DNA from: Faecousia sp.
GTDB lineage: Bacteria > Bacillota > Clostridia > Oscillospirales > Oscillospiraceae
NCBI GenBank assembly: GCA_045580125.1
Contig: JAZNNE010000022.1
Location: 30 to 64,029, forward strand
DNA length: 64,000 nt
Reading direction: 5' to 3'
The notes under the pieces are model-generated. The model had not been told where the DNA came from. It did not search any database and saw nothing but the letters and a program-made list of their open reading frames with translations. A program made the position numbers and the translations under genes. Positions 23,426-59,642 of the stretch are shown here, one piece after another (position 1 is the stretch's first letter; each line of letters begins with the position of its first letter).

Positions 23426-25345
23426 ATGGACAGAGAGATCAAAAACATCATGCGCTGCAACCAGCAGCTGCTGGAAAGCTCGCCAAAAGATCTGAAATCG
23501 CTTTTCAATATCATATTCCGTTCGCCCGATTGCGTCTTGTGCGAAACCAACGACGGCTTTCGCATTCATACGCAAACCTACGGTCAGATCCATAGCCGGA
23601 TCTGTACCGCAGCAAATGCTCTGTATGCCAAGCTCGGCGCCACCCACAGCTACATCGCTCTGGAGATGGAAAACTCTCCGGACTGGATCGTAGCTTTTTG
23701 GGCTATTTTGATGAGCGGCAACAAGCCCTACCTGGTCAACACCCGCTATCCCGCGCACCTGAGCAACAGCATTCTCGGCACCCTGCAGGTGGAATACATT
23801 CTCTGCACCAAAGATACGCAGCTTTCCGGTCAGGCTATCCCTCTGTCCCAGCTGGCAGGAGATTTTCCCTGCGTCCCGGAGGATGTTTTTGAAAACGAAC
23901 TGGCTTTCTCCTCCTCTGCTACCTCTATGAAAGAGGTCATTTGCTTCTATACCGGTTTGCAAATTTCCGAGCAGGTCCTGAATTTCCCGCAAATCGTCAA
24001 AGAAAATCCCCAAATCGTCGCCCATTACAAGGGCAAGCTGAAGCAGCTGGCATTTCTGCCTTTTTACCACGTATTCGGTCTGTTTGCCGTATTTTTCTGG
24101 TTTACATCCCTTGGACGAACATTGGTTTTCCTGCCCGATTACAGTGCAGATTCCATTTTGAAAACCTGCCGACGTCATAAAGTTACCCATATCTTTGCAG
24201 TGCCCGCCCTTTGGCACACGGTTGAAAAGCAGCTTTCCTCCGAAGTCGCCAAGCTGGGCGACAAAAAACAGGCACAGCTGCAAAAATCCCTTGCATTTTT
24301 TACAACGCTTCAAAATCTTTTCCCCCGCTTGGGCGCTAAGTTGGCAAAGCGTTCCTTGCGGCAGATCACCGACAAGCTGTTCGGTCAGTCCGTTCTGTTT
24401 TGCATCAACGGTGGCAGCTATCTGCGGGACTCTGCGATGGCGCTGCTCAACGGCATCGGCTATAACCTGCACAACGGCTACGGTATGAGTGAAATCGGCA
24501 TAACCTCGGTGGAGCTGCGGCATCGTCCCAAGCACCGGAATCTGAATTCCATCGGTCACCCCTTCTCTGCGGTAGAATACCGCTTGGATGAAAACGGCAT
24601 TTTGCAGGTCAGAGGCGGAACCGTATGCACGAAAAAGCTGGTAAACGGCAGCAGCGTACAGCTGGACGACTGGTTCCACACCGGCGACCAGATGAAGTGC
24701 GTGGACGGTCATTACTACATTCTCGGTCGGCAAAGCGATGTCGTGATCGGTGAAAGCGGCGAGAACATCAATCCGGATATGATCGAAAAAGCATTTATTG
24801 TCCACGATGTTACGCAGCTATGTGTTCTGGGTCTGCCCGGTGAAAACGGTCAGGAGCTCTCGCTGGTGGCTCAAATCAGCCCCTACACCACCGGGAACCG
24901 CATTGAGCAGATCAAAAAGCGCATCTACCAAATCAACGAAACCTTCCCGCTTGCCATTGGCATCAAGCACTTCTATTTCACATACGACGAACTGGCATCT
25001 GCATCCGCCATCAAGGTCAGCAGAACGCAGTTGCTTCAAAAAATCGAGAATGCCCAGGTAAATCTGACTGCATTCCATCAATTCAAGCCCCGGGAAGCCC
25101 AGCAGGGCGAACAGTCCGCGCTGTTCCTGGCAGTTCGGAAGATTATCGCGCAGGTTTTGGTTGTCGACGAAGCGGATATTCTCGACGACACCCACATTTT
25201 CCACGATCTGGGCGCGACCAGCATCCAGTATTTTTCCATCCTTTCCGCATTGGCAGAGCAATTTTCCGTCTCCGCCTTTGACAGCAGCGATACCTATTGC
25301 TATACCCCCAGGGAAATCTGTGAATATTTAGAGAGAAAATTGTGA
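23426..25345 (+). CDS. AMP-binding (acyl-adenylate-forming) enzyme fused to a C-terminal carrier (ACP/T) domain
   Basis: FLPFYHVFG, NGYGMSE, WFHTGD, ILGRQSD..GENINP, IKVSR; C-terminal HDLGATS phosphopantetheine Ser motif. Confidence 0.88.
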   Translation: MDREIKNIMRCNQQLLESSPKDLKSLFNIIFRSPDCVLCETNDGFRIHTQTYGQIHSRICTAANALYAKLGATHSYIALEMENSPDWIVAFWAILMSGNKPYLVNTRYPAHLSNSILGTLQVEYILCTKDTQLSGQAIPLSQLAGDFPCVPEDVFENELAFSSSATSMKEVICFYTGLQISEQVLNFPQIVKENPQIVAHYKGKLKQLAFLPFYHVFGLFAVFFWFTSLGRTLVFLPDYSADSILKTCRRHKVTHIFAVPALWHTVEKQLSSEVAKLGDKKQAQLQKSLAFFTTLQNLFPRLGAKLAKRSLRQITDKLFGQSVLFCINGGSYLRDSAMALLNGIGYNLHNGYGMSEIGITSVELRHRPKHRNLNSIGHPFSAVEYRLDENGILQVRGGTVCTKKLVNGSSVQLDDWFHTGDQMKCVDGHYYILGRQSDVVIGESGENINPDMIEKAFIVHDVTQLCVLGLPGENGQELSLVAQISPYTTGNRIEQIKKRIYQINETFPLAIGIKHFYFTYDELASASAIKVSRTQLLQKIENAQVNLTAFHQFKPREAQQGEQSALFLAVRKIIAQVLVVDEADILDDTHIFHDLGATSIQYFSILSALAEQFSVSAFDSSDTYCYTPREICEYLERKL

Positions 25346-25346
25346 T

Positions 25347-25976
25347 ATGAACGAAAACATTTGGCTTGTCCGATTCTGCCTCGGCTTTGTAAAGCTTACC
25401 GGTCTTTTCCCGGCATGGCTGTATCTGAAGCCCCGGATCCGTCTTGCTTCCGGTGCAAAACGCCGGTTGCCCAAATCCTGCATTTTGGTCAGTAACCATA
25501 TCAGCCTGATGGATTTTGTGGTGTACCTGCTGGTATTTCCCTCCCGCACCATTCGGTTTTTGATCGCAGAGGTGCTGTATAACCGCGGCAAGCTCTTTGC
25601 GCGGTTTCTGAACCTGATCGGCGGCATTCGGGTGGATCGGGACGCCAAAAACTTCGACTTCGTTTCCCATTCCCTGACCGTGCTGGACAACGGTGGCGCC
25701 ATCGGCGTATTCCCCCAGGGTCGCCTGCCTGTCAAAGGACAGCATTTCCCCTTTACTGCCAGCACCGCATTTATCGCCCTGCGCACCGATGCGCCCATCA
25801 TTCCGGTATACACCGACGGCAATTACGGTCTTACCAAGCGTGCCGGCGTTGTTATCGGCGCCCCCCTCTATCTGCATGAGCATTGCTTGGACAACGTCAG
25901 CGAACAGGAACAGCTGACCCATCTGACAAAACTGCTGGAAGAGAAAGTTTACGCACTGAAAGAGGAACTGAACTGA
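25347..25976 (+). CDS. plsC: PlsC-type lysophospholipid acyltransferase
   Basis: SNHISLMD (HX4D), VFPQG, APIIPV. Confidence 0.85.
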   Translation: MNENIWLVRFCLGFVKLTGLFPAWLYLKPRIRLASGAKRRLPKSCILVSNHISLMDFVVYLLVFPSRTIRFLIAEVLYNRGKLFARFLNLIGGIRVDRDAKNFDFVSHSLTVLDNGGAIGVFPQGRLPVKGQHFPFTASTAFIALRTDAPIIPVYTDGNYGLTKRAGVVIGAPLYLHEHCLDNVSEQEQLTHLTKLLEEKVYALKEELN

Positions 25977-25978: not shown

Positions 25979-26617
25979 ATGGGCAAGACAAAGAAATTAT
26001 GCTTCCGCCACAATATGCCGGCTATGGATGCCGCGCGGCTTGTTTGTATGCCTTTGCTGCTGCTGTGGCGTATGAAGCGGCTGAATCCCGACGGCACAAA
26101 ATATACCGGCCGCATCCGCGGCGGTGCGATCGTTGCCGCCAATCACACCTCTTTTGCAGATCCCTTTCTTGTAGGTGTTGCCGTTTGGTACCGCCGGCTG
26201 TTTTTCCTTGCAGCCGAAGCAGTTATGGGAGGGAAACTGCGCACCTGGCTTCTTAAGGGCGTAGGCGCCATTAAGATCGACCGCAACTGCGCCGATATCG
26301 AAGCAATACGCAAATGCGTCAGCGTGCTGAAAAGCGGCTACCTGCTTTCCGTTTTTCCCCAAGGTGGCATCACCGGCGAGGATACGGTCTCGTCCATCAA
26401 ATCCGGCGCGATTCTGATGGCGCTGCAGGCGGGTGTTCCCATCGTACCGATGCACATCTGCCCTCCCAAGCACTGGTACAGCCGCCGGGTGGTCATTATC
26501 GGCAATACCGTCGATCCCAAAAATCATGTGGCAAACAAATTCCCCTCCACCAAGGACATCGAGAAGATCTCTCAGATCCTGATGGAGGAAATGAATCACT
26601 GTATGATATCTCAGTAA
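25979..26617 (+). CDS. plsC: PlsC-type lysophospholipid acyltransferase (second copy)
   Basis: ANHTSFAD, VFPQGG, IKSGAILMALQAGVPIVP; true start 25979. Confidence 0.85.
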   Translation: MGKTKKLCFRHNMPAMDAARLVCMPLLLLWRMKRLNPDGTKYTGRIRGGAIVAANHTSFADPFLVGVAVWYRRLFFLAAEAVMGGKLRTWLLKGVGAIKIDRNCADIEAIRKCVSVLKSGYLLSVFPQGGITGEDTVSSIKSGAILMALQAGVPIVPMHICPPKHWYSRRVVIIGNTVDPKNHVANKFPSTKDIEKISQILMEEMNHCMISQ

Positions 26618-26629: not shown

Positions 26630-26872
26630 ATGCAAACACTGGAACGGTTGATCAAAGTCTTCAATGTTGTATTCGAAGACAGCATTGATATCAGCGCATT
26701 CAAGCCGGAAGCCTCTCTTCGTGAGGACCTTGGTATGAACTCCATCGGTCTTCTATATATGGCAATGGCCGTTGAAGAGGAATTCGGCATTAAGTTCAAT
26801 AACGACGATTTCGCTTCCATCTGCACTGTAGCAGATGTGGTTGCGTGCATCGAAAAGAAATGTCAGAGATAA
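26630..26872 (+). CDS. Stand-alone acyl carrier protein
   Basis: 80 aa, acidic, EDLGMNSIG motif, VEEEFGIKF, TVADV. Confidence 0.9.
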   Translation: MQTLERLIKVFNVVFEDSIDISAFKPEASLREDLGMNSIGLLYMAMAVEEEFGIKFNNDDFASICTVADVVACIEKKCQR

Positions 26873-27273
26873 GCTGGTCTGAAAAGACCCCTGTTTTCGG
26901 GGACATCGTCCGCACAAAGGTACAGTTTTATCATCACTACGGTATTTTTGTGTCTGAAAACGAGGTGATCCAGTTTGGTCTGCCGGACGATCCCTTTCGC
27001 CCCGCCTGCCAGATCCGTGTGATCAGCACAGACGTTATGACATTTCTGCAAGGCGGCGATCTGGAGGTCTTGACGCCCGATCGCAGCACCCGCAGTCAAA
27101 TGCGCAGTCCGGAGCAGATCGTATCCATCGCCCGCGGACGCCTTGGCGAAGACGGATATGATATTTTGCACAACAACTGCGAACACTTTGTAAATGACTG
27201 TGCCTTTGGAAAACCCCACTCCTCCTTTGTGCAGGACGTGCGGGAAAAACTGCGAAAAAAACTGGGAAAATAG
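26860..27273 (+). CDS. LRAT/PLAAT (permuted NlpC/P60) family acyltransferase or phospholipase
   Basis: N-terminal GDIV...YHHYGIF and C-terminal YDILHNNCEHF catalytic motifs. Confidence 0.85.
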   Translation: MSEISWSEKTPVFGDIVRTKVQFYHHYGIFVSENEVIQFGLPDDPFRPACQIRVISTDVMTFLQGGDLEVLTPDRSTRSQMRSPEQIVSIARGRLGEDGYDILHNNCEHFVNDCAFGKPHSSFVQDVREKLRKKLGK

Positions 27274-27284: not shown

Positions 27285-27869
27285 TTATTCTCCCAGTATC
27301 TGTATGAAATAATCATCTACAACGCATAATTGCCGTTGTAGCGGCAGGATGTTGACTGCTTTCAAGTCGGTGATTCCGGTGCCGCATTTTTTGTAGTACG
27401 CCTCTTTGGCTGTCCAAATTTCAAAAAACCGCCGCAGGATGCTTTCATCGCAGCACAGCTGCTGCCAGGTTTCCTCCGCCCCTGCCGCCAGATATTCCAT
27501 CTCCTCCGGCACGCATACGTGCTTGCAAATGTTCAGTTTAATGGGTCGAATGCGCTCAATATCGATCCCCACCGGGGCATCGCTGATGGCGCACGCTACC
27601 ATTTGGTCGCAGTGGGATATGCTCACGTGCATTTCGCAGCCGGTGAGGTATGGCTGACCTTTGCTTGTGCAATGCAGCTTCGCAGAATCGGTATTCGCCT
27701 GCTTTTGCAGCAGTTCATAGACCAGACATTCCGCCGCCAAAGACCGTTTTCGGTCCTCTTCCCGGCGCAGGCGGTCGATACGCTCTTTTCTGGATGGCGA
27801 CAACTGCCGGTAAATGCATTGCAGCTGCGCCTCGGTATATTCTGTTATTTTACGGCAAGCCCAATGCAT
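27285..27869 (-). CDS. Sfp-type 4'-phosphopantetheinyl transferase
   Basis: KGQPYL, VSISH, VGIDIE, WTAKEAYYK..GTG. Confidence 0.93.
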   Translation of the reverse strand: MHWACRKITEYTEAQLQCIYRQLSPSRKERIDRLRREEDRKRSLAAECLVYELLQKQANTDSAKLHCTSKGQPYLTGCEMHVSISHCDQMVACAISDAPVGIDIERIRPIKLNICKHVCVPEEMEYLAAGAEETWQQLCCDESILRRFFEIWTAKEAYYKKCGTGITDLKAVNILPLQRQLCVVDDYFIQILGE

Positions 27870-31601: not shown

Positions 31602-31640
31602 CAAATCGTCAAAACAATGTTTTGACGATTTGTTTTTTAT
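31602..31640. terminator. Bidirectional terminator
   Basis: CAAATCGTCAAAACA-a-TGTTTTGACGATTTG plus a T tract, between convergent genes. Confidence 0.82.
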
Positions 31641-32614
31641 TTGCTTAATTCCTCTGCCACAGCTTGGGTAAAGCCTGCTTTTTCCAGACGGAAGGCTTGC
31701 TCAATGGAAGCAACCACCGTATCCGCATTGGCTTGTCCGTGCATTTTCAGCACAGTTTTCTTCGGTCCCAAGAATGTGGCGGCGCCGCGGGAATTGAAAT
31801 CAAAGGTCTCCAGCAGAGCTTGGCGGCATTTCTCCATTTCCGGCGTGCCGTTACCGATCCGCCGTACAATTTCTGCCGCAGCTTTGCCCACGGACTCTGC
31901 GCATTTCAGCAGGAGATTTCCGCTGAAACCGTCGGTAACGATGACGTCGGCGTAATCGCTGACCAGATCGCAGCCTTCCACATTGCCCACAAAGTTCAGA
32001 TCCAACTGACTGATGCGCTCATGCGCCTGCTGGATCAGGGCTGTTCCCTTTTGCCGTTCCTTGCCCACGCTCATCAAGCCGATCCGCGGACGCGCAATGC
32101 CGCAATAGCATTTTGTAAAGGCGTGACCCATTTTTGCAAACCGGACAAGATCATCCGGCGTACACTCAATATTTGCGCCGCAATCCACAAGACACAGCAA
32201 ATTCTCCCCGTTGCAGGGCAAAGCGCTCAGCAGCGCGGGGAATTTCAGTCCCGGCAGCAGACCCAGCCGGCAGATCGAGCCCACCAGCAGCGCGCCGGTA
32301 TTGCCTGCCGAGAGCATAACGCGGCAATCTGCATCATTTTTCAGGCAGCTGTAGGCCTTGACCATAGTCGTATCCTCAGCGCCGCCAAAAATGCAGGTGG
32401 GCGGGTCTTCGTTGCGGATATACTCGCAGGCATCCACGATCTCATATCGGGACGGATCGATACCGCGCTGCGTCATGATCTTCTGCAGCGCCTGCTCCGG
32501 TCCAATCAGAACCGGAAAGATATCCAAACCCTTTTCCAGCGCCATTGCCGCGCCGGTTACAATAGGTTCATAGCCGGCATCTGCACCCAGGGTGTCAATA
32601 ACGATCTTTGTCAT
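31637..32614 (-). CDS. plsX: Phosphate acyltransferase (acyl-ACP:phosphate transacylase)
   Basis: IVIDTLGAD, SAGNTGAL, DCGANIEC, GNVEG, DVIVTDGFSGNLLLK, GAATFLG, KMHG. Confidence 0.9.
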   Translation of the reverse strand: MTKIVIDTLGADAGYEPIVTGAAMALEKGLDIFPVLIGPEQALQKIMTQRGIDPSRYEIVDACEYIRNEDPPTCIFGGAEDTTMVKAYSCLKNDADCRVMLSAGNTGALLVGSICRLGLLPGLKFPALLSALPCNGENLLCLVDCGANIECTPDDLVRFAKMGHAFTKCYCGIARPRIGLMSVGKERQKGTALIQQAHERISQLDLNFVGNVEGCDLVSDYADVIVTDGFSGNLLLKCAESVGKAAAEIVRRIGNGTPEMEKCRQALLETFDFNSRGAATFLGPKKTVLKMHGQANADTVVASIEQAFRLEKAGFTQAVAEELSK

Positions 32615-32619
32615 AGTGC

Positions 32620-34257
32620 TTACTCCAAAGAAATAATGAAGTCATAAACGCCCTGCTTGCCGTCTACAAAGCCGGTATCCACCAGAGGATATTCCGTCTG
32701 CATAAACGCCTGCAGCTGCTGCGCCTCATCTTCGGACACACTTTCTCCATAGAAGACGATGACAACATCCTTCGGTTCCGCAGTCATCAGCTTGGTGATC
32801 AGCGCCTTGGCCGTTTCCAGATTGCTGCTGCCGGTGGAGAGTACGTGATGCCCGTCCAGACCGATATAGTCGCCCTTTTTGATATTGATGCCGTCCAGAT
32901 GCGCATCACGGACAGCGGTGGTTACGTATCCGGTGGTAACCTGACCCAGGTTCATAGACATATCTTCCACCAGTTCTTCCACCGTATCGCTCCACAGATT
33001 CATCATAGAAAGTGCAGAATAGCCCTCAGCAATGGACTTCGTGGGGATCACCCGCACATCGGAATCGGTATAGGCGTCTGCAGCCTGATTGGCTGTCAGA
33101 ACGATATTGGAGTTGTTGGGCAGCACCACAATATGCTCCGCATTGACGCTTTTGAACGCGTCCAAAAATGCGTTTACGGAAGGATTGTTGGTCTGACCGC
33201 CGTCAATGATGTATGTGGCGCCGATTTCACGGAAATAGTCCTGAATGCCCGCGCCGGATGCCACGGCAACAACTGCGTATTTTTCTTTCTTGCGCTCGAC
33301 CTGATTCTGGCTGTGCTGGACAGACATATTTTCGATCTTGACGCTGACGAACTCGCCAAACTGTCTTCCATAGCCCAGAACTTCTTCCGGAGCGAAGGTA
33401 TGGATATGGATCTTGACAATGCCGTCGTTATGGACGGAAACGATCGAATCGCCCATTGCCTCCAAAGGCTTGGTAAAGCTCTGCAGATCAAATGCAGCCA
33501 AGTCGGTTTTGTAGTTCATCAGCTGCAGCACAAACTCCGTGCAGTAGCCGTATTCCAGCCGGGTATCCGGACCGAAATCGCTGTCGCAGGCAGCAGGTGC
33601 CGACCAATCCGCAACATCTGTGCTGTCTGTAATTTCTTCGCCGTGCAGGCAGGCGCAAATACCCTCGACAAAGCACACCAGTCCTGCACCGCCGCTGTCA
33701 ACCACATTGGCCTCTTTCAGCACCGGCAGCAATTCCGGTGTTCTTTTCAGCGTAGCGGTCATCACATCCCGCAGGGCATCAAAGCCCTCTTCAAAAGAGC
33801 TGAAGGAGGTTGCATTGTCTGCCAGATATTCCGAAGCTTCCCGGATAACTGTCAGAATTGTGCCTTCTGTGGGGGTGATAATGGAATGATATGCGTCCTC
33901 AGTAGCGCAGGCAAAGGCTTGCGCCATATCCGCAAAGGTTACAGTCTCTTTTTCAGAAAAGCCGCGGTAAAGGCCGTGAACAAACTGGGAGAAAATCACG
34001 CCCGAATTGCCTCTTGCAGACAGCAGAATGCCTTTGGACAGGCCTTTCATATACTGCCCGACGTTGGTCTGCTCCGGGTCGGCAGCCTTAAGACCGCCAC
34101 CGAAGGTCATCGCCATATTGGCACCCGTATCGCCATCCGGTACAGGGAACACATTCAGGTTGTTGATCGTCTCCATATTTCTCGTCAAGTTGCTGTATCC
34201 GCTGAGAAACAGCTTGTGAAGACCGATACCGTCCAACGAATTTGACATATTACTCAT
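32620..34257 (-). CDS. fakA: DAK2-domain fatty acid kinase catalytic subunit
   Basis: INNLNVFPVPDGDTGANM, ARGNSGVIFSQ, EGTILTV, VDSGGAG, YGYCTEF, KIHIHT, GGQTNNPS. Confidence 0.95.
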   Translation of the reverse strand: MSNMSNSLDGIGLHKLFLSGYSNLTRNMETINNLNVFPVPDGDTGANMAMTFGGGLKAADPEQTNVGQYMKGLSKGILLSARGNSGVIFSQFVHGLYRGFSEKETVTFADMAQAFACATEDAYHSIITPTEGTILTVIREASEYLADNATSFSSFEEGFDALRDVMTATLKRTPELLPVLKEANVVDSGGAGLVCFVEGICACLHGEEITDSTDVADWSAPAACDSDFGPDTRLEYGYCTEFVLQLMNYKTDLAAFDLQSFTKPLEAMGDSIVSVHNDGIVKIHIHTFAPEEVLGYGRQFGEFVSVKIENMSVQHSQNQVERKKEKYAVVAVASGAGIQDYFREIGATYIIDGGQTNNPSVNAFLDAFKSVNAEHIVVLPNNSNIVLTANQAADAYTDSDVRVIPTKSIAEGYSALSMMNLWSDTVEELVEDMSMNLGQVTTGYVTTAVRDAHLDGINIKKGDYIGLDGHHVLSTGSSNLETAKALITKLMTAEPKDVVIVFYGESVSEDEAQQLQAFMQTEYPLVDTGFVDGKQGVYDFIISLE

Positions 34258-35137
34258 TTCCTTCGATCAGTACTTCTTTTCCGTAGCTAAACGCGACGAC
34301 TGTGCCGGGACCAACGGAAGCGCCAACAATGGGTCCGATGGCGCTGATATAAACCTGCTTAAACGGAGCCAGCTTCAGGATCTCAGCCTTCAGCAGTTCC
34401 GCCTCTTCCAGGCAATCCGCATGGGTGATCAGCAGCTCGTTGTAGGTGCCGTCGGCGGCATCTACGATATGCTCAGCAATTGCTGTGCGGGCATTGGCAG
34501 CGCCCTTTGCCTTCTTGTGCGCATAGTTCTGACCCTTCCGGTCGGAAATGATCAGGGGCTTAACGCCGAACAGATTGCCGAAAAATGCCTTGGAGGCCTT
34601 AACGCGACCTGCACGTCGCAGATATTCCAGAGAAGCAACCGTGCCGCACTGATTGACGCACAGCTTGATGCTTTCAATGTACTCCGCAGTTTCCGCAGCG
34701 CTCAAACCGGCGGAACGCTTCCGGGATGCTTCCATCACCAGATAGCCCTGACCCAGAGAGCTGATCAGAGAGTCGATGCAGTAAATACCGGCATCGGGAT
34801 ATTCCGCTGCCATCTCCTGTGCCACCAGACGGGCTGCATTGATCGAAGCGGACAGAGCAGAGGAGCAGGAAATATACACAATATCCTTACCTGCATCCAA
34901 CGCACTCTTAAATGCATTGTAGTAAGCGTCCTTGGGAACCTGGGTGGTGAAAACCCGCTTGCCGTTGCGCATCAGATCGTAAAAGTCCTTAACTGTGTGA
35001 GACTCCCAGTCCAGAGAAGCCTTATACTCCGTGCCGTCCACAACATAATTCATTGGGACATATTCTACACCATACTCCTGACGCATCTGCAGCGGCAGAT
35101 CACAAGTAGAATCGGAATAAATAACAAATTCTCTCAT
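34250..35137 (-). CDS. fakB: DegV-family fatty acid binding subunit
   Basis: SDSTCDLP, FTTQV, CSSALSAS, IDSL, LEYLRRAGRV, GPIVGASVGPG. Confidence 0.92.
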   Translation of the reverse strand: MREFVIYSDSTCDLPLQMRQEYGVEYVPMNYVVDGTEYKASLDWESHTVKDFYDLMRNGKRVFTTQVPKDAYYNAFKSALDAGKDIVYISCSSALSASINAARLVAQEMAAEYPDAGIYCIDSLISSLGQGYLVMEASRKRSAGLSAAETAEYIESIKLCVNQCGTVASLEYLRRAGRVKASKAFFGNLFGVKPLIISDRKGQNYAHKKAKGAANARTAIAEHIVDAADGTYNELLITHADCLEEAELLKAEILKLAPFKQVYISAIGPIVGASVGPGTVVAFSYGKEVLIEGNE

Positions 35138-35149
35138 ACTAAAATCTCC

Positions 35150-36091
35150 TTATTTTTTCTGAGCACTGATAATGCTGTCCATCAGTGCCTGTTCATATTT
35201 CATATCCTCGCTGATTTCCTTGCCCCAGTAAAATGCTGCGCACAAACCGGGACCGATGGAAGCACCGCAGGACATACCAACGTGGTTAATAATAATTTCC
35301 TTGGGAGAAAACTCCTCCTGAATACGCTGAGCAAGCACCTCTGCCGACTTTTCCCGATCGGAATGGGCTACAAAAATGATCTGCTCGCCGGGATTTTCGA
35401 TGGTGCCCTTCATATATTCAATTACGGCGTCAAAGGCATTCTTCTTGCCCTTAAACTTTCCCAGCACCTGAGACAGTCCCTTGCGGTTAAAGTCCGCCAT
35501 AGGGTTAACGCCGATCAGGGTGCCGAAGAACGCCTTGAAATTGGAGATACGGCCGGTCTTCACCAGGAAGAACAAGTCGTCCATCGGACCGATCTGGTGC
35601 ACGCGGTGCTTATTCGCCTCCACATACGCCGCCGTCTCTTCCAGAGAACAGCCTTCCTGCTGCAGCTGCGCAGCCTTTACCACCAGAAGCGTCAGAGCCG
35701 TGGAATACCGCAGCGAATCCACAATAACGATCTTGCGCTGGGGATACTTTTCCAGCAGCTCCTGGGCAACACCGTGGCAAACCTGATTGGTGCCGGACAA
35801 GGCAGAGGAAAGTGTGATCGCCAGGATATCCTTGCCTTCTTTCAGGAAGTGCTCATAGACGGAGAATACCTCGCCTCTTTGTGCGCTGGCCGTCTTATAC
35901 GGAGCTCTCCGACCGGACATAGATTTATAGTATGTTGTGGGATCGAGCAGTTCCCAGTCCAGATCTGCCAGATACTCTTTGCCATCCTGCAAATAAATCG
36001 TTCCGTGAATATATCCGGGCACGCCAAAGCGTTCCCGCAGTTCTTTGGTCATATCAGATGATGCATCGGGGATAATCACAAAATCAGACAT
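35150..36091 (-). CDS. fakB: DegV-family fatty acid binding subunit (second copy)
   Basis: PDASSDM, YKTAS, LSSALSGT, VDSLRYS, LVKTGRI, SIGPG; true start 36091. Confidence 0.92.
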   Translation of the reverse strand: MSDFVIIPDASSDMTKELRERFGVPGYIHGTIYLQDGKEYLADLDWELLDPTTYYKSMSGRRAPYKTASAQRGEVFSVYEHFLKEGKDILAITLSSALSGTNQVCHGVAQELLEKYPQRKIVIVDSLRYSTALTLLVVKAAQLQQEGCSLEETAAYVEANKHRVHQIGPMDDLFFLVKTGRISNFKAFFGTLIGVNPMADFNRKGLSQVLGKFKGKKNAFDAVIEYMKGTIENPGEQIIFVAHSDREKSAEVLAQRIQEEFSPKEIIINHVGMSCGASIGPGLCAAFYWGKEISEDMKYEQALMDSIISAQKK

Positions 36092-36145
36092 TGAACTCAG
36101 CCCTTTCTTGTTTGTGTTCACAATGTGTTCATAAGCATCTGTGTA

Positions 36146-36174
36146 ATAATACCACACTCTCCCTTTCTTTTCAA
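36146..36174 (-). promoter_or_regulatory. sigmaA promoter of the fakB-fakB-fakA-plsX operon
   Basis: TTGAAA-17 bp-TATTAT with TGG extension. Confidence 0.72.
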
Positions 36175-36279
36175 CATCTTTTTCATTTTTTCGACGTTTT
36201 GCGACAAAAAACAGATGCATTTTTCCAAAAGCTGTGATATAATGTTTTATCGATATATTAATGTTTTTGGGAGGCACTT

Positions 36280-43191: not shown

Positions 43192-44286
43192 TTACGGCAG
43201 CGCCTTATTGAACATATTCAGAATATCCTGCATCATTTCCCCATTGACCTCACTGTACAAGGCGTGGTCAACACCGCTGCAGAATTCCGCCTGTTCTTCC
43301 CAGGTCAGATCCCGGTCGTATTCCTTCTTCAGCTGTTTCAGGTCTTTTGCAACCTTTTCCTGATAGGCAACGGCGCGCAGCGAGTGCAAAATCGTATTGT
43401 GTCCCGCCTGAGGACCGGTGCCAACGTAATACGTTACATTTTTACTCCGGATCTCATCTTTGTGAGAAATAACGGATTGATGCGCATAGCCAATAACGAA
43501 ATCACGGGTTCCGTGGGCAATATAGACCGGAATGTCGGTGCTGTTAATACCCCGCACGGCATCGTATTTTGTGTAGTCCTTAAACAGCAGCTTTTGATAC
43601 GCATTCAAAAAGTCCTTGGGAAAATCAAATTTCACCATATCTGCGAAGGGCGCCATATATTGGTCTCCCTTTTCCACGAACAGCGTATAGCCGCTGTTAA
43701 ACGGAGCTACCGCTGCGCATCCGCGGACATTTTTGTGGATAGAAAGCACCGATGTTGCCGCGTAGCCGCCCCAGGAATGTCCGAACAGGAACAGCGGGTA
43801 TTTAGACAGCCGCTTGTTGCTTTTGATATAGGTCAAGGCGTGATCCAAATTCACCAAGGGCGTGCACATACCCACGGTAGAATCGCCCTCAGAGGCGTAT
43901 GTACCCTGACAATCGTAGGAAAACACAGCATATCCGTTGTTGACAAAGTATTCAATAAACGGAATGTAATCGTCTGAGCCGGCATGCATACCGTGGCAAA
44001 CCACGACCATTCCCTTGGCGTTGGGGCAGGGATAGAAATAGCCCTGAAGCTTCAACCGACCGCTGGGAAAGAAAAACGTGGTCCGCTGCAGCTTATTTTC
44101 CACGCGACTGTAATCAAATTCACCGAATACCGTATTGATATCCCGTTTTTCATATCTTTTGAAGAAGGAATCGTACGCAGTCTTCGCTCCCAGGATCGTT
44201 CCCAGCTGAAGACCTGTGCGCAGCGCGAGCCCCGCAAGCGCTTTTGCGTCATTCATAAAGCGTCCGCTTTGCTCTTTGTTTTCCAC
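43192..44286 (-). CDS. Alpha/beta-hydrolase (serine aminopeptidase/lipase-like)
   Basis: VVCHGM, YDCQGT..SEG, FGHSWGG, AHGTRD, AGHN; GTG start 44286. Confidence 0.85.
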   Translation of the reverse strand: MENKEQSGRFMNDAKALAGLALRTGLQLGTILGAKTAYDSFFKRYEKRDINTVFGEFDYSRVENKLQRTTFFFPSGRLKLQGYFYPCPNAKGMVVVCHGMHAGSDDYIPFIEYFVNNGYAVFSYDCQGTYASEGDSTVGMCTPLVNLDHALTYIKSNKRLSKYPLFLFGHSWGGYAATSVLSIHKNVRGCAAVAPFNSGYTLFVEKGDQYMAPFADMVKFDFPKDFLNAYQKLLFKDYTKYDAVRGINSTDIPVYIAHGTRDFVIGYAHQSVISHKDEIRSKNVTYYVGTGPQAGHNTILHSLRAVAYQEKVAKDLKQLKKEYDRDLTWEEQAEFCSGVDHALYSEVNGEMMQDILNMFNKALP

Positions 44287-48407: not shown

Positions 48408-48413
48408 TTGGTG

Positions 48414-48513: not shown

Positions 48514-48522
48514 GCTTTGCAT

Positions 48523-54500: not shown

Positions 54501-55368
54501 CCTGCACCTCCGCAAATGCCAGGGAATACTTCCCATTTGCAGGGTTGCCCAACTTGGTTGCTTCGATCTTGATGTAGCGGGCGTCGGTAGTGGAGAAGTA
54601 GAATTCCACACCGCCCATAGCCGCGGGCGCGACAAAGCCGGTTTCGGCTGCCTGGGTTGCCCAGGTGCTGCCGTCGGAGGAGGTCTGAATGGTAAAGTTC
54701 TCCGGGAAGCCCAATGCCTTGCCCGTAGCGGAAGAGGTATCGGTATAGCCGTACAGCATAACGTTGGAGATCAGCTTGGCTTCGCCCAGATCAACAATCA
54801 GATACTGGGTGGTATTGGCAGAGGAAAACTCAGCAGATTGGAAGCCGTAGGAGGAGAAGGTCTCCAGATCCGTGGGCGTCAGCTCCATAGCAGCCACGGG
54901 TTGGGGCTCGCCATTGACATAGAACTGGCGGGTCAGCTCTGCGCCCTTGGGGATGTCCGCAACATAAATATTGTGCGCGGCATCGTGCAGCGTCCAGCTG
55001 TCCAGCTGTACACCGCCGGAGATCAGGGCAGTCTCACCGGATGCGGCCCGGTATGTAATGGTGTGTCCATTCTGACCGGACTCAGCCTCGCCAAATGTGA
55101 TGGACTGGGTCGCGTCGTATGTGCCACCCTTCAGGATGACGACCACATCGCCGTCGGCACTCAATGCGGCAGCCTTTTTCTTGGCAGCCTGGAGGGTCTT
55201 GAGTGCAGTTTGCTCTGTGGTGCCGTCATTGGAATCGCTGCCGTTGACGGGGTCGATCCACAGATCAGCGTCTGCTTCCGTTGCGCTTGCGATGGTGATC
55301 GCCGGCATAACCGACAGCACCATACACAGCACCAAAAGAAGAGAAAGGATTCTGGTGAGCTTTTTCAT
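48523..55368 (-). CDS. 2281-aa secreted right-handed beta-helix protein (GH141-like) with F5/8 (discoidin/CBM32-like) inserts, DUF5018-like, InlB-B-like and four FN3-like repeats
   Basis: Signal peptide; DPVNGSDSNDG, TITYRAASGE..ISGG, RQFYVNG, PGEWYID, IDHNEVSYTPYTGISLGWGW, DGGAIYT, IYLDEG; repeated IVDLG...IQ.S.DG..W modules. Confidence 0.85.
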   Translation of the reverse strand: MKKLTRILSLLLVLCMVLSVMPAITIASATEADADLWIDPVNGSDSNDGTTEQTALKTLQAAKKKAAALSADGDVVVILKGGTYDATQSITFGEAESGQNGHTITYRAASGETALISGGVQLDSWTLHDAAHNIYVADIPKGAELTRQFYVNGEPQPVAAMELTPTDLETFSSYGFQSAEFSSANTTQYLIVDLGEAKLISNVMLYGYTDTSSATGKALGFPENFTIQTSSDGSTWATQAAETGFVAPAAMGGVEFYFSTTDARYIKIEATKLGNPANGKYSLAFAEVQVGFTNTTKAVNLGVVQHVDLDSTMTTAANINLTKGNAYTVNVGSSAVAVGAVVMTADAAAVDTVGDIQIEASADGTVWNTVYSKTDYTWKSSNTFAINPVAATQLRITSGAAVTVSQLKVHAPAELSGTITVNGSGENYLMDNGFADGFNSGVQSSPVYKGEFIVDLGSVQDVGAIRLYPTYVDGVTAGYMKAARVQVSTDGVNYHTLMELPDIQTPTGGAQLLVLPKGYKAQYVKLQPLMLRGDGEYSLQLDELDIVPSTVTGILAEEDAPSYAVKNIYTALPASSLTPRLGYYTNVNGSFVDYEKASGEAECIIDGLRSYGYTGQFTYNELVQWGGSKVPAFLLQLGTATQIGAIEVAIDPDIWSAPLNYEIQVLTGGVWKTVASEDDPQWVDKTQPDAHYAQRYKFDEVVITAARILVYNLTEEDGTYPEADISANPAGFTTDFCLNEFTLYTVDKVTYEVDETIESDTVVHDKVDLTADDIIEFGYYRGADLVTLVEYNDGTGAKMFDGNYENYGATYGQQYQWMPPYGPNIPALVLDATENGKPSLINTIELAVRDDGFCAPYDYKIQVTTSAERDNWTTVAEGAEQDWTIKNVKTFTFSDVEVYKVRLVATLLTPMSNIPKSEWRSSTVTYLHISELTLLNIHDPNNPIATDIVTQGETASGTITYDAKGAAATSSYSSDFNPNRAVDGFIESMYNAGLSVSSDEKYNFSYLKNPEHVEMHSLYLWYHRIQHIVGASMDGTELYVDDGMASLSGTPLMPTWLSNDYMFIDTPGEWYIDRHEGKIYYMAQDTMEDVEAYLPVTEHVIDMEYASNITFEGITFSHTTFTFPSENQYVDEQANCYLLNNTWTQVPGGIELSGCVNVVFDGCQIRNMGTAGIRIKSDGVVISDGCKIINSLVCDISYNGIVIGEIVAQAGFRDWQLVKNATVQNNFVTRIGIDMYDSVGIFAGYTNGVLIDHNEVSYTPYTGISLGWGWSAETNNDDVGNNKITYNYVHDVCKTNYDGGAIYTLAEQSDSEIAYNYIHDSGTLASKTENAIYLDEGTAYLDIHHNVIDTEAQSWLQIWFETIHNNKTHDNYHNSSLSTRGYYVNVSNSTKNNIAFDSLSSNAAALSIANNAGLTDESVKRGEDKGFWLRHNFSQDYWTNSDCARYNTEERGWYDVNISGQIGRTYYDDINRVATIVVPEGTDLSSMSLRYTAEGGWTVTPNNGTAQNFTEPVAYTLTSDGTEKEWLVRVIVGEDTQGIPLPPSDPIPTPVPTNPPATEPVVDPMEKIDLSGCVVGTCSAYDASVSYANQSWWSSAYPDWRDLENFVDGDHLNDISYTVSPGERADFYVDLTRGYGGAVAVDQLKLYYGGVGNYAMTSITIVLELADGTQVTQTFSPNWGVYATPLEWTFEQTYNVKGIYVWADSVTAGSSVTFGEFELYRDTSVEEPVYTVTFRNWDGSVISSTTYHYGDTVTVPGDPTKASDGSYTYTFAGWDKTVVDCVGDAEYTAVFTAEHYHTYDDDCDTSCNTCGADRPVTHSYTTTTTKATLTKDGKIVKACSDCGDVESTTVIARPATFTLSTVNYTYNGVVKTPGVTVKDANGKTLVKGTDYTVTYPSGRINPGSYNVTITMKGNYSGTKTLTFKINLAVPTVKASNAVDGVKITWNAIAGATSYKVYKSVYTSSGWSSWTAIKTGYTGTSYVDTTVKSGHNVRYTVRAFNGSNSSTFKASNSIKFLATPTVKASNAVDGVKLTWNAVGSAKSYIVYKSTYSGGKWSSWTRLKTGVTGTTYTDTTVKSADNVRYTVKAINGNFTSYIKASNSIKFLATPTVKATNAAGGASITWNKITGAKSYIVYKSVYSGGKWGGWTRVATGVTGTSYTDTSVKSGANVRYTVKAINGNFTGYIKASNSIKFLATPTVTVARTTTGIKASWNAVGSAKGYIVYRRAYVNGKWTGWEAVKTTTATSFTDTTAKTGVFYQYTVRAYNGNFKSWYINSASIKR
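48526..49590 (-). repeat. Four tandem FN3-like coding repeats, 267-bp period
   Basis: CCAGGAACTTGATGGAGTT recurs at 48786, 49053 and 49320; 89-aa units LATPTV...ASNSIKF. Confidence 0.9.
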
Positions 55369-55520
55369 AAAGTATCCTCCTTGCTGAATATTGGGAAAAT
55401 TTTCAAGTGCACCTATGTATATTGTTAATATATCACAAAGAATTTGGAAACGGAATACTAAATTTGCAGAAATTGCATAAATTTACCACAAAAGGATTGC
55501 AAAGTTGCGTTTGTTGGGCG

Positions 55521-55540
55521 TTGGTGTCAAAATTGGTGTC
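55521..55540. repeat. Direct repeat TTGGTGTC x2 (12-bp period), possible integrase arm-type site
   Basis: gcgTTGGTGTCaaaaTTGGTGTCcaa; homologous to 58616-58635. Confidence 0.45.
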
Positions 55541-55722
55541 CAACCGATTTGATTCGTTTCTGTTCGTCCTGAAAAGTCAGAAAAACAACCGGCTCGGATA
55601 TCATTCCTTAAATAAAAAATAATATCAAGAAAAAGTCGAAAATGCTTTCCTTTGTCGAAAAAGTGTGGTATAATAATTTAATACTGCGAAAAACATATTA
55701 GCTTACAGGAGTGTAATGGAAT

Positions 55723-57081
55723 ATGACGGATAAACCTTGCTACAATTTAAGTCCCACGCAAGACGTGGTATATATGCAAAGCCAGTACAGTTTATATAAA
55801 AGAGTGATCAACATCCTTTCCTCCATCGCCATTGATGAGGAAGTGGATTTCCAGCTTATGAATCAGGCTTTCAAGCTTCTGGTTGAACGAAATGACTGCC
55901 TCAGAATCAGATTCTTCAAAAAGAGAGGAAAGCTGATGCAGTACTTTGGCGATTCCGGAAATAAGATCAAGAATGTGCCTGTTTTGTCCTTTGAAACCAA
56001 GCAGCAGCAAGACGCCTTTATCGATAAGGTTAGAAAAAAAGCCATTGACTATATGCACGGCGTTGTCATCGAGCCTTATTTTATTCACACCTATGACAAT
56101 CGTTATATGGTGTTTATCAAGATCTGCCATTTGGTTAGTGACCTTTATGGAATCAACGTTTTGTATACGGATCTTTTAAACGTGTATCATGCGCTGAAGA
56201 AGGGCGAGCCGTTGCCCCCTGCCCCGGCAAGTTTCGAGGAGATTATTAAAAAGGATATTGAAAAGAACGCCAACAGCAATGTGACGGAGAAACATCTGGA
56301 GTACTTCACCGATCTGCTCACCAATAATCCCGAGCCGTTCTATGCCGGTATTCACGGCCCCAACAATCCCATTTGGCAGAAGCAGCTCAAAAAACACCAA
56401 CGGGGCATGCCCATTTTCCTTGTCCGTAACAGTACGCAGACCTACCGCCACAAGATCGACAAGGATCTGGTAGAGAAGGTGCTAAGCTATTGTCAGAACA
56501 ATGTATGCTCACCTGCGAATTTGTTTTTCTGCGCAAGCTCCGTAGCCCTGGCTAAGCTAAACGGAAACCTCAAGAACATAATGCCCATCGGTCTTTATCA
56601 TTGCCGCCATACCGCACAGGAAAAGCACTGTGCAGGTCCCAAGGTGCAAAGTGCTGCTTGTTATACCAAGATCGATTATGCCCTTTCCTTTGAGGATAAT
56701 CTGAAGGCATACTCAGCTGCGCAGTACGGTCTTTACAAACATATCAAGTTTAAAGACAGAGATTTTGAGGCCTTAGTGCACAACATCTACCGCTCTTCAC
56801 CTCTTACGATGTACTATTCGTTTTCCTACTCGCTCTTACCCGTTGATATGCCCGATGGCGTGGAGTTTAATGTGTATACCAACGGTAATGGCGCGCTTCC
56901 TGCCTATGTCGTTCAGGTTTTGAATGCCAAGACCAAAGAAGTTGAGATGGCTTACGATGTACAGACCAGGATCACCAGTGAAGATGATGTCAGCAAATTC
57001 CATACCTACTATCTGAATGTACTGAAGCAGGTGCTGGACGATCCCGGCATCAAAGTTGCGGATATTCAGCTTTCGCTGTAA
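55723..57081 (+). CDS. Stand-alone NRPS-type condensation domain protein
   Basis: YNLSPTQ, LVERNDCLRIRF, ICHLVSDLYG (HHxxxDG variant); no A or T domain in this ORF. Confidence 0.82.
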   Translation: MTDKPCYNLSPTQDVVYMQSQYSLYKRVINILSSIAIDEEVDFQLMNQAFKLLVERNDCLRIRFFKKRGKLMQYFGDSGNKIKNVPVLSFETKQQQDAFIDKVRKKAIDYMHGVVIEPYFIHTYDNRYMVFIKICHLVSDLYGINVLYTDLLNVYHALKKGEPLPPAPASFEEIIKKDIEKNANSNVTEKHLEYFTDLLTNNPEPFYAGIHGPNNPIWQKQLKKHQRGMPIFLVRNSTQTYRHKIDKDLVEKVLSYCQNNVCSPANLFFCASSVALAKLNGNLKNIMPIGLYHCRHTAQEKHCAGPKVQSAACYTKIDYALSFEDNLKAYSAAQYGLYKHIKFKDRDFEALVHNIYRSSPLTMYYSFSYSLLPVDMPDGVEFNVYTNGNGALPAYVVQVLNAKTKEVEMAYDVQTRITSEDDVSKFHTYYLNVLKQVLDDPGIKVADIQLSL

Positions 57082-57112
57082 TGACATATTTTCAAAAAGC
57101 GTTCTATATATG

Positions 57113-57147
57113 CAGCACCCCAAAAGCGTTTCGCTTTTGGGGTGCTG
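57113..57147. terminator. Bidirectional terminator hairpin
   Basis: CAGCACCCCAAAAGC-gtttc-GCTTTTGGGGTGCTG between convergent genes. Confidence 0.78.
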
Positions 57148-57166
57148 TTCATTTTATCATGTGGGT

Positions 57167-58018
57167 TTATAAAATCTTTCTTCTGGTTAATTTTTGCGTT
57201 ATTTTATTAAAGTTGGTAATAATCACGTCGCCGGTTAAGCGCAGACGGCTATCTTTATTATTTTTGTTAATGACCTCTATATTGCGGTAAATTTGTTCCA
57301 GATCATCATAGCCATCGCCAAAATACTCTTTTAAGATGTTTTTCGTTCTTTCATAACCGACTTCCAACATATTATCAATGCTGTCCTGTTGGAACACAAA
57401 TGATTGTCTTAACGAAGTTTCGTCCGGGAAGGTTATTTTAATAATTTTGTTGTCAAACTCTGTGCTTTCAAATTTATAGCAAATATCATCAAAATATATA
57501 CAGATGATATAATCTATCTCACGATCTAAAAGCGGAAAAACGGGAATGTTGTCGACCACAGCTCCATCAAAATATCCCGAGCCGTCAACCTGAACGGAAC
57601 GGTTGCAAACAGGTAACGCAACCGCTGCTTTTAAGTATAGCGGTATTTTATCTTTGTCCACCTTGGATAAATCTTTATATGCGATATTTTTGGCGCTTAA
57701 CTCAAGCAAAGAACAGTAAAATTCAGAAGATATTGAATCGTTGGGATCATACAGATTGATGATATCTTGTTGCAAAATATCGCTTCTAAGGAATCGGGTC
57801 AAGCCCATCTTCTTGCCATTGCTGCAAATCTCACTCCACATTTGCTTTGCCCGCTCAAGCTTGTTTGTCATATAGGCATAACCATTGAGCGTGCCTACGG
57901 AAGCGCAAGATACATATTTAATTTCTTCAGACGGTATAATTTCGCTTAATGCATATAAAGCGCCAAGCTGAAGTGCGCCTTTAGCCATTCCTCCGGCCAA
58001 TACAAGTCCTATATTCAT
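57167..58018 (-). CDS. Patatin-like phospholipase
   Basis: LAGGMAKGA glycine loop, CASVG nucleophile elbow, YFDGAVVDNIP (DGA/G motif). Confidence 0.88.
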   Translation of the reverse strand: MNIGLVLAGGMAKGALQLGALYALSEIIPSEEIKYVSCASVGTLNGYAYMTNKLERAKQMWSEICSNGKKMGLTRFLRSDILQQDIINLYDPNDSISSEFYCSLLELSAKNIAYKDLSKVDKDKIPLYLKAAVALPVCNRSVQVDGSGYFDGAVVDNIPVFPLLDREIDYIICIYFDDICYKFESTEFDNKIIKITFPDETSLRQSFVFQQDSIDNMLEVGYERTKNILKEYFGDGYDDLEQIYRNIEVINKNNKDSRLRLTGDVIITNFNKITQKLTRRKIL

Positions 58019-58218: not shown

Positions 58219-58463
58219 TTGGTTGCGGAAGGCACACTCGAACCTGCGCCCTGTTGCGGTGCCCGATAAAATCTTCGGGCTTACGCTTTTCCTCGGTTTT
58301 ATCGACCGCTGCCACTCGCTCGCCTTCCTTCCTCCGCCACTGGCGGCGGTCGGCTCGCTCCCCCAACGAGCTACGCTCGTCGGTCTCATAACCCGGAAGT
58401 CGCTTGAAGCTTGCTTCATAACCAAAGAAAACACCACCCGTTTGGGTGGTGTTTTCTTTGGTT
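58219..58463 (+). repeat. tRNA-Met-derived structured repeat, copy 1
   Basis: Inverted degenerate tRNA 3' end, nested hairpins, GCTCGTCGGTCTCATAACCCGGAAGTCG...ACCA, then a 20-bp-stem hairpin. Confidence 0.7.
58420..58463. terminator. Perfect 20-bp-stem hairpin following the tRNA fragment
   Basis: AACCAAAGAAAACACCACCC-gttt-GGGTGGTGTTTTCTTTGGTT. Confidence 0.8.
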
Positions 58464-59256: not shown

Positions 59257-59482
59257 CGTTTCTGCAGCCCGGTTTGCGGTGCCCTATATTTTCGGCGGCA
59301 GGCAAAGCCGCCTTGAAAATATAGACCGCTGCACTGCGCTCGCCTCCTTCCTCCCGCCACCGGCGGCAGTCGGCTCGCTTACCCAACGAGCTACGCTCGC
59401 CGGTCTCACAACCCGGAGGTCGTTTGAATTCTACTTCATAACCAAAGAAAACACCACCCAAACGGGTGGTGTTTTCTTTGGT
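59257..59482 (+). repeat. tRNA-Met-derived structured repeat, copy 2
   Basis: Colinear with 58237-58462; GCTCGCCGGTCTCACAACCCGGAGGTCG...ACCA followed by the same hairpin. Confidence 0.7.
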
Positions 59483-59642
59483 GCGAATGTTCTCAATGGA
59501 TTCGAGAAAATAAACATAAAACAACCGACAATCACACATATATTCAAACCGTATCTAATTGGCACATTGGTGTTTTCAAAAATAGAGATATAAAATGTAT
59601 ATACAAACTAAAACGTATATACGAGTCAAGGAGGAAAACACA

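Follow-up and report, generated by a model that had tools for sequence, protein, structure and literature searches.

A stand-alone condensation enzyme of the fatty acid amide lineage, linked to two lipases in a Faecousia genome, and its possible supply by a separate carrier-protein lipid module

Bacterial fatty acid amides (FAAs) act as ligands of human G protein-coupled receptors, and a link with inflammatory bowel disease has been drawn (PMC13310621, PMC10871352); their makers are currently sought through clustered genes for condensation (C), adenylation (A) and thiolation (T, the carrier function). Such systems of gut Clostridia, which resemble nonribosomal peptide synthetases (NRPSs), are attributed to Chang et al. 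2021, as cited in PMC13310621. The closest described enzyme is OaaC of Coprococcus eutactus (12KH; Singh, Grant & Gulick, JBC 2026). This stand-alone C enzyme serves the pathway to oleoyl-aminovaleric acid; it condenses an acylated acyl carrier protein (acyl-ACP) with free amines to FAAs and gave no product with oleoyl-CoA (PMC13310621). Besides stand-alone C, T and A genes, the six-gene ecf/ebf FAA clusters of Enterocloster include genes for a phosphopantetheinyl transferase (PPTase) and a predicted hydrolase (PMC10871352). Stand-alone FAA C enzymes, their non-canonical active-site motif and accessory PPTase and hydrolase genes are therefore already described (PMC13310621, PMC10871352). Here we analyze a stand-alone C gene at positions 55723-57081 of a 64,000-nucleotide stretch of DNA (the window) from Faecousia sp. 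(Oscillospiraceae; assembly GCA_045580125.1, contig JAZNNE010000022.1, positions 30 to 64,029). We propose, with about as much confidence as doubt, that this gene, no longer accompanied by A and ACP genes of its own, encodes an OaaC-like acyl-carrier:amine N-acyltransferase, which would be fed in trans by a resident A-T lipid module and two lipases.

The locus holds the following features:

55666..55674 (+): extended -10 promoter-like site TGgTATAAT, read from the sequence, about 50 bp upstream of the C gene
~55706-55710 (+): AGGAG ribosome-binding site of the C gene, read from the sequence
55723..57081 (+): stand-alone condensation-domain protein, 452 aa, OaaC/FAA-synthase-like lineage (PF00668, AlphaFold2 model, PDB profile search)
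57112..57148 (no strand): GC-rich hairpin in the gap where C and patatin converge (17-bp stem; T-rich tail on the + strand)
57167..58018 (-): patatin-like lipase, 283 aa, no signal peptide (PF01734, 48.4 bits against a cut-off of 27.7)
43192..44286 (-): alpha/beta-hydrolase (Hydrolase_4), 364 aa (Pfam), orthologue of C-linked hydrolases elsewhere

An earlier note on this DNA, made by reading its letters, had described a lone C domain convergent with a patatin, and both points were confirmed by Pfam and by the coordinates. The 452-aa open reading frame (ORF) on the + strand is intact and aligns over its full length with the Pfam Condensation profile PF00668, scoring 94.9 bits where 30.6 is the cut-off; residues 7-450 cover positions 5-446 of the profile's 456. 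The patatin gene faces the C gene across a gap of 86 bp. The C protein is the sole PF00668 match in the assembly (1.54 Mb in 90 contigs, 94% complete). Because an extended -10 site and an AGGAG site lie upstream and a hairpin, likely a terminator shared by C and patatin, stands in the 3' gap, the C gene looks like a transcription unit of its own. The consensus promoter scan did not list the site at 55666-55674, as no -35 hexamer fits. Scans of the window for tRNAs and Rfam families found nothing, so no RNA feature accounts for the C locus.

Several lines of comparison place the protein with the FAA condensation enzymes, as the earlier note had supposed. When a profile of its family was run against all PDB chains, the top match was OaaC (12KH, 164.3 bits, E 4.9e-47, full length), followed by PvdL at 50.9 bits, and because 12KH outscores the next solved C domain by so wide a margin, we place the protein in the OaaC/FAA lineage and regard it, on this profile evidence, as a true relative of those enzymes. 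Pairwise, the two proteins are 24% identical over 459 aa (E 6e-35). An AlphaFold2 model built with 18 homologues (mean pLDDT 84.8) superposes in Foldseek on the NRPS C domains LgrA, CDA-C1 and HtmB2 at TM 0.78-0.80, and the predicted fold is the two-lobe CAT-like condensation fold. The starter C domains of RzmA and CDA and the C domain of PvdL are among the next-best sequence or fold matches. VibH is a stand-alone C enzyme that acts on a free amine. Like starter (CS/CIII) C domains and VibH-type enzymes, the protein would use a thioester donor to acylate an amine, but those enzymes belong to assembly lines in which the acceptor is carrier-bound, or use an aryl donor, and their sequence scores fall about 110 bits below that of OaaC.

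The likeness to OaaC extends to general form: both are stand-alone proteins of about 450-465 aa from gut anaerobes, and both carry a non-canonical motif that keeps the second His and the Asp. FAA C domains have the motif (D/H)HxxxD(S/A/G), with His and Asp more than 99% conserved (PMC13310621). In the window protein the active site reads K133-I-C135-H136-L-V-S-D140-L-Y142-G143 (KICHLVSDLYG); compared with the canonical HHxxxDG, the first His is replaced by Cys and the Gly by Leu, while the second His and the Asp remain. The earlier note had singled out the string CHLVSDLYG as a variant active site. The string is indeed present, but it is not peculiar to this gene: the pattern K-x-C-H-x-x-x-D-x-Y-G, that is, Lys133, Cys135, His136, Asp140, Tyr142 and Gly143, is invariant across 18 homologues of 47-100% identity, and (C/S)HxxxDxYG holds also in relatives encoded in C-A-ACP operons. 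Position 1 of the motif is Cys in the family and Ser in the cassette members of Bacteroidales, and the Asp is followed by L, I, V or T and then by the invariant Y-G. The motif thus reads as a family trait that retains the catalytic His and Asp, related to, yet distinct from, the published FAA C-domain motif. Unlike OaaC, the window protein has no adjacent A or ACP gene; its conserved partners are a patatin and an alpha/beta-hydrolase.

To place this arrangement within the family, we drew on an exhaustive profile search, which returned 309 representative clusters at E <= 1e-30; the best 150 of these are stand-alone proteins of about 430-510 aa, barring multi-domain NRPS giants and gene fragments. 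Gene neighborhoods were surveyed at 80 loci from species-level genomes, plus metagenome contigs; the genomes are metagenome-assembled genomes (MAGs), in which absences of genes are soft, and neighbor labels come from profiles built in this analysis, save where Pfam is named. Relatives at 34-48% identity, found in Clostridia, Christensenellales, Bacilli and Bacteroidales, mostly lie in a C-A-ACP cassette on one strand (A of ~575 aa, ACP of ~80 aa), which is the canonical FAA-type cassette and, as with OaaC and the FAA systems, encodes C, A and ACP separately within a single operon. An adjacent stand-alone A and ACP were present in about 45 of these relatives; in some other loci of this group C and ACP are paired but A is missing, and a few (43-48% identity) lack both A and ACP nearby. 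The roughly 20 loci at 49-63% identity hold a lone C, and A, ACP and lipase genes are all absent within 6 kb of it. At 80% identity or above lies a clade of 31 loci, several of which, among those without mapped partners, end at a contig edge. Neither in the window nor in these 31 loci is there an A or ACP within 6 kb of C, except at one locus from a human-gut MAG (L076), where an A-T gene on an unrelated strand lies 4.7 kb from C.

A maximum-likelihood tree of this family and three distant stand-alone C proteins, rooted with OaaC as outgroup, shows the same gradation. The C-A-ACP cassette type forms a basal grade, whereas all lone and lipase-linked C genes fall in one 43-tip clade (support 1.0) that contains no cassette member and at whose loci A and ACP genes are absent from the nearest 3 kb (6 kb in the neighborhood map). 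The sisters of this clade are C-ACP pairs without A (L094 and L107), and the lipase-linked C genes form a tight sub-clade nested within it. The history likely ran from C-A-ACP through C-ACP and C alone to hydrolase-C-patatin, as far as the tree and the neighborhoods allow it to be read. The branch without adjacent A or T is represented in dozens of species-level genomes from the guts of ruminants, pigs and humans.

Some further arrangements were seen across the family. At four loci of 39-47% identity (L094, L095, L107 and L112), an ACP gene lies directly 3' of C with no A within 6 kb, and such pairs look like a halfway stage on the path from C-A-ACP cassette to lone C. Stand-alone C genes also stand in tandem pairs at L084 (7828-11601), L122 and L135, and L052 and L054, some of them ahead of a single A-ACP pair, which suggests two acceptors or products served by a single loading system. 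Genomes of the lone-C clade also each encode a protein of ~985-1004 aa with an FAA/FACL-type adenylating domain as its N-terminal half (L198, L199 and other places). Small convergent genes (196-248 aa) lying 3' of lone-C relatives were considered as patatins and rejected, since they are non-patatin and mutually unrelated.

Another possibility is that the enzyme uses acyl-CoA directly, as starter C domains do, with the CoA thioester supplied by other AMP-binding ligases of the genome; carrier proteins would then play no part. Among C domains, those of the starter type, which accept acyl-CoA, stand nearest to the FAA C domains (PMC13310621), the genome has seven further AMP-binding loci, and lone-C genomes carry FACL-like ligases of ~580 aa with no adjacent ACP. 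Nevertheless, we consider this donor quite improbable: the failure of OaaC with oleoyl-CoA (PMC13310621) speaks against it, 19 of the 22 genomes with a C ortholog, this one included, lack a close FAA/FACL-type A homologue at E <= 1e-30, and the closest CAT-type relatives keep a C-adjacent ACP where A is gone (the four loci named above). A search for an FAA- or cassette-type A enzyme elsewhere in this genome found none, only generic AMP-binding matches of ~100 bits.

What the close relatives of the window gene keep beside them is a lipase. In 18 of the 31 loci of the clade at 80% identity or above, a convergent patatin gene lies 39-362 bp downstream of C, with a spacing of 39-88 bp in most of the complete loci and of 362 bp in one (L067). 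The patatin orthologues are 81-92% identical and retain the motifs of the Ser-Asp dyad. In the window protein these are the oxyanion motif AGGMAKG, the nucleophile CASVG (in which the Ser is kept and the first Gly is replaced by Cys) and the FDGA aspartate; G-x-A-x-G, A-S-x-G and D-G are invariant in 13 patatin sequences. A second lipase-like partner, a Hydrolase_4 alpha/beta-hydrolase, lies beside C or beyond the patatin in 13 of the 31 loci. Its orthologue in the window, at 43192-44286 (-), had been missed in the earlier note and makes a third conserved member of the unit: it is 78-83% identical to the C-adjacent hydrolases of 12 other loci, as against 27-35% to the other hydrolases of the window. 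The gene starts with GTG, preceded by the ribosome-binding site AGGGGG, and the protein has a hydrophobic helix at its N terminus and the nucleophile elbow GHSWG. In the window the hydrolase gene is parted from C by an 11.4-kb block (44287-55722) comprising two proteins without a Pfam match, a GT2 glycosyltransferase and a 2281-aa surface protein, and from the comparison with the other loci we conclude that this block split the window's unit. The earlier note had seen the patatin as a phospholipase built in as the acyl source; the pairing is conserved, while the role as acyl source is one that we infer.

The unit also appears to be mobile. The C gene has a GC content of 44.9% and the patatin gene 37.6%, compared with 52.5% for the genome; most genes of the A-T module described below have 51-54%, and the small ACP gene of that module has 44%. 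The genes flanking the hydrolase-C-patatin unit vary between genomes. C orthologues of at least 80% identity occur in at least four GTDB families (f1, f8, f17 and f19), and no C ortholog was found in the two sampled species of the same genus or in the other 200 sampled genomes of the family. Across 190 genome pairs, C identity (median 86%) always exceeded A-T identity (median 49%), and the two did not correlate (r = -0.04). The GC composition, the changing surroundings, the patchy distribution and this decoupling of C and A-T divergence together point to horizontal spread of the unit among gut Oscillospirales.

A low-GC mobile gene next to a patatin could also be a decaying remnant, or one half of a toxin or phage-defence pair. 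Patatins act as effectors in some defence systems, and the adjoining low-GC mobile region of the window holds TnpV and TIR-domain proteins. However, we regard this explanation as very improbable. The C frame is intact, with a promoter-like site, a ribosome-binding site and a likely terminator; the C orthologues are 80-95% identical across families and retain their catalytic residues; and PADLOC assigned none of its families to five scanned proteins, C, patatin and hydrolase among them.

The carrier functions that the C enzyme would need are encoded at a distance. The earlier note had placed an A-T fusion, a free ACP and a PPTase 29-32 kb away, and they are indeed there, at 27.9-32.3 kb from the start of C, as part of the following group of genes:

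23426..25345 (+): A-T fusion, 639 aa, with a divergent ANL-type adenylating domain and a carrier domain (PF00501, 118.6 bits; PF00550, 30.4 bits)
25347..25976 (+): PlsC-type acyltransferase 1 (PF01553, 58.9 bits; synteny conserved)
25979..26617 (+): PlsC-type acyltransferase 2 (PF01553, 73.9 bits; synteny conserved)
26630..26872 (+): free ACP, 80 aa (PF00550, 39.9 bits; conserved in the module)
26845..27273 (+): LRAT/PLAAT-family Cys-His acyltransferase or phospholipase, 142 aa (PF04970, 69.7 bits; position conserved)
27285..27869 (-): Sfp-type 4'-phosphopantetheinyl transferase, 194 aa (PF01648 and PF22624; HetI- and AusB-like by NCBIfam)
28570-29601 (-) and 29577-30527 (+): divergent pair of Hydrolase_4 alpha/beta-hydrolases (Pfam)

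This order (A-T, PlsC, PlsC, ACP, LRAT, PPTase, hydrolase pair) recurs in at least 20 other genomes; besides the window (23426-30527), the module was seen at L047-L050 and L167-L186. The hydrolase pair adjoins it at L167, L169-L173, L180 and L183, with 38-63% identity. In some variants a second adenylating enzyme precedes the ACP, and in others the LRAT and PPTase genes are fused. Of the genomes sampled, 38 of 401 in the order (~9%; 18 of 178 genera) and 7 of 201 in the family have the module. The earlier note had read the A-T fusion as part of a split A-T-C pathway. That reading was upheld in part: an A-T homologue is present in 20 of 22 genomes with C, but the A-T locus also occurs without C and, judged by its conserved gene order, is a self-contained lipid module, not half of a split cluster. 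It looks like a split Aas-like pathway for lysophospholipid re-acylation, or a pathway to a special lipid. Like Aas (the bifunctional acyl-ACP synthetase/2-acyl-GPE acyltransferase), it would join AMP-forming activation of fatty acids to PlsC-type, acyl-ACP-dependent acylation of lysophospholipids; unlike Aas, it divides these functions over A-T, two PlsC proteins, a free ACP, LRAT and PPTase, and its scores lie far below the family cut-offs. The best NCBIfam name of the PlsC proteins is acyl-[ACP]--phospholipid O-acyltransferase (Aas-type), and those of the A domain are long-chain-fatty-acid-CoA ligase and MenE, all far below their cut-offs. A distant patatin-family gene lies inside an A-T/PlsC/PlsC/A/ACP module (L048 12802-13737) in a genome without a C ortholog (G110); it is 19% identical to the window patatin and is an independent link of patatins to the A-T module.

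With two lipases as conserved partners, the C enzyme might instead serve lipid remodeling: the lipases would yield lysolipids or head groups, which C would re-acylate to an ester or to an N-acyl-phospholipid (from lyso-phosphatidylethanolamine or phosphatidylethanolamine). Members of the C superfamily such as SgcC5, WS/DGAT and PapA5 do form esters, the partner hydrolase carries an N-terminal hydrophobic helix, and the neighborhood is rich in lysophospholipid acyltransferase-like genes and includes the LRAT/PLAAT enzyme. Nevertheless, we judge this improbable, because the nearest characterized relative makes amides from small free amines (PMC13310621), the relatives in C-A-ACP cassettes have no lipase partner, and secondary-structure prediction gave no membrane segment in C.

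Supply of the C enzyme by the A-T module is favored by the genomes in which the two are found. A full-length A-T homologue (39-68% identity, E <= 1e-140) is encoded in 20 of the 22 species genomes with a C ortholog of at least 80% identity, a raw count in which the phylogeny and habitat shared among genomes are not factored in; in the unbiased sample of the order, the module is in 4 of the 5 genomes with C. The A-T proteins of the C genomes form 10 clusters at 60% identity and 16 at 70%, and since there are 10 clusters even at 60%, the association spans many long-separated host lineages. The two sampled species of the same genus have neither C nor A-T. Both C genomes without A-T have homologues of the cassette-type A, and a single further genome (G206) has such an A in addition to A-T. 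In one of the two exceptions (G215), an A gene (570 aa) is followed by an ACP gene (74 aa) on a different contig from C; in the other (G209), the cassette-type A gene is cut at a contig end and no carrier was found beside it. A small contig of the latter genome (C337), a possible fragment of an A-T module, bears only a weak ACP. In all, 21 of the 22 C genomes encode an adenylating enzyme with its own carrier outside the housekeeping system.

The two loci are also loosely associated in position. In 5 of 21 genomes the distance from C to module genes is 54 kb or less, where ~6% would be expected per genome: it is 4.7 kb in the human-gut MAG of L076, 28-32 kb in the window and 41 kb in G218, and in G203 and G205 C lies 53-54 kb from the ACP-bearing half of the module. 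C thus sits loosely near module genes more often than by chance. This arrangement can be compared with the ecf/ebf clusters, which give precedent for the involvement of a hydrolase and a PPTase. Unlike those clusters, in which six genes stand together, here C and the lipases make up a mobile unit, and PPTase, carrier and A lie 28-32 kb off or on other contigs. The candidate A also differs from that of the OaaC system in being fused to a carrier and part of another self-contained module.

We therefore return to the proposal of an OaaC-like N-acyltransferase supplied in trans, in which the donor carrier, the acceptor, the product and the roles of the lipases are assigned from homology and gene context. 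The patatin and the membrane-anchored alpha/beta-hydrolase would release fatty acids from (lyso)phospholipids or glycerides; the resident A-T/ACP/PPTase module would activate the fatty acid and load it onto a phosphopantetheinyl carrier; and C would take the acyl-carrier thioester in trans and use it to acylate a free small-molecule amine, so that a fatty acid amide forms. A more specific version, which we put forward tentatively and with more doubt than confidence, is that the mobile hydrolase-C-patatin cassette works only through the resident carrier module, in gut Oscillospirales unable to make fatty acids, converting acyl chains of host or dietary phospholipids to amide lipids. If this is true, candidate host-active signaling lipids would have a modular source that acts in trans and is invisible to cluster-based genome mining.

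We also surveyed the lipid physiology of the genome and the carriers that it encodes. No ketoacyl synthase (PF00109) was found in the 94%-complete assembly, while all 14 of 14 control genomes gave a match. The organism is probably unable to elongate fatty acids and would be a fatty-acid auxotroph that relies on scavenging, a reading in line with a co-directional block in the window:

31637..36277 (-): plsX-fakA-fakB-fakB operon (PF02504; FakA-like domains and Dak2; two DegV proteins)

By its gene content, this operon is taken to be the housekeeping route from exogenous fatty acid through acyl-phosphate to acyl-ACP. The carriers in the genome are an AcpP-like protein (contig C85, beside hslO), a DltC-like protein (contig C13), the T domain of A-T and the ACP of the module. 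On C13, at 99-3429, a DltA-like ligase (505 aa), a DltC-like carrier (75 aa; below the Pfam PP-binding threshold used) and an MBOAT protein (522 aa) lie in the order A-C-B. This A and small carrier were considered as a fatty-acid system and rejected, as they belong to a DltA-DltC-MBOAT set. The earlier note had allowed that C might have another cognate A/T locus elsewhere; none was found, the carriers outside the module being only the AcpP-like protein and this set.

These results bring in an alternative with the same chemistry, in which the donor is housekeeping acyl-AcpP loaded by FakA/FakB-PlsX and the A-T module is independent, sharing only lineage or lifestyle with C. Much of what weighs against supply by the module favors this alternative. 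The window itself encodes the Fak-PlsX route, and an AcpP-like carrier is present in this genome and in all 22 of the 22 genomes with a C ortholog. An ACP profile built from cassette partners does not discriminate among the carriers (module ACP 43 bits, AcpP 38, DltC 31). In the lone-C clade (49-63% identity), which stands for the ancestral state, only 1 of 9 genomes has the module, so that losing the adjacent A and ACP did not require it. The module, for its part, holds its own acyl acceptors (the two PlsC-type enzymes and LRAT) and so does not need C; it is frequent without it, as in 13 genomes of the order sample with A-T at 46% identity or more, the C-less genomes including 6 of the 7 sampled species of one genus (g188). 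Nevertheless, we hold acyl-AcpP to be an unlikely donor, though one to be taken seriously. It leaves unexplained both the co-occurrence in 20 of 22 genomes over at least 10 A-T lineages, against ~9% of the order, and the separate A-ACP pair of the exception genome, and AcpP and Fak-PlsX are near-universal and cannot account for a patchy distribution.

Other points also weigh against an OaaC-like enzyme fed by the A-T module, beginning with the raw nature of the co-occurrence counts. C and A-T are on separate contigs in most genomes. The identity of the C protein to OaaC is no more than 24%. The substrate of the A domain is not readable from its sequence, the PDB and NCBIfam matches being weak and mixed. 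Finally, no public sequencing run held more than 10% of the C-locus words, and there was no RNA run among them.

Compared with the described systems, three things are new here: a nested branch of C enzymes without adjacent A or T, a sub-branch that moves as a lipase-C-lipase unit, and a statistical tie of C to a separate, uncharacterized carrier-protein lipid module. We found no literature report joining an FAA-type C enzyme with a patatin. If lone C enzymes work with carriers encoded elsewhere, mining based on clusters underestimates the capacity for FAA-type products. The proposed supply in trans, if true, would also be a case in which nature has re-wired an NRPS-like C enzyme to a foreign carrier system. 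Such a case would bear on how C enzymes recognize their carriers, a question that the OaaC structure has raised. In addition, the analysis draws attention to the A-T/PlsC/ACP/LRAT module itself, found in ~9% of the sampled Oscillospirales.

A few further features adjoin the members of the unit in the window. Directly downstream of the C-linked hydrolase lies a third PlsC-type acyltransferase (42197-43021, -; 274 aa), which is not beside the hydrolase in other genomes. Between that hydrolase and the GT2 gene, two low-GC co-directional ORFs at 44455-47180 (-) encode proteins of 735 aa (41% GC) and 178 aa (37% GC), with no match in Pfam or PADLOC. To the right of the patatin, the low-GC stretch carries a gene for a TnpV transposon protein at 59595-60026 (+; 113 bits), which marks mobile DNA. 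The same side holds an element of ~90-100 bp in two copies (58303-58397 and 59332-59418), at which ARAGORN and Rfam gave nothing, and the element is found again, with 86% identity, at the matching spot beside the C-patatin pair of the human-gut Oscillospiraceae MAG (L076, 9409-9505).

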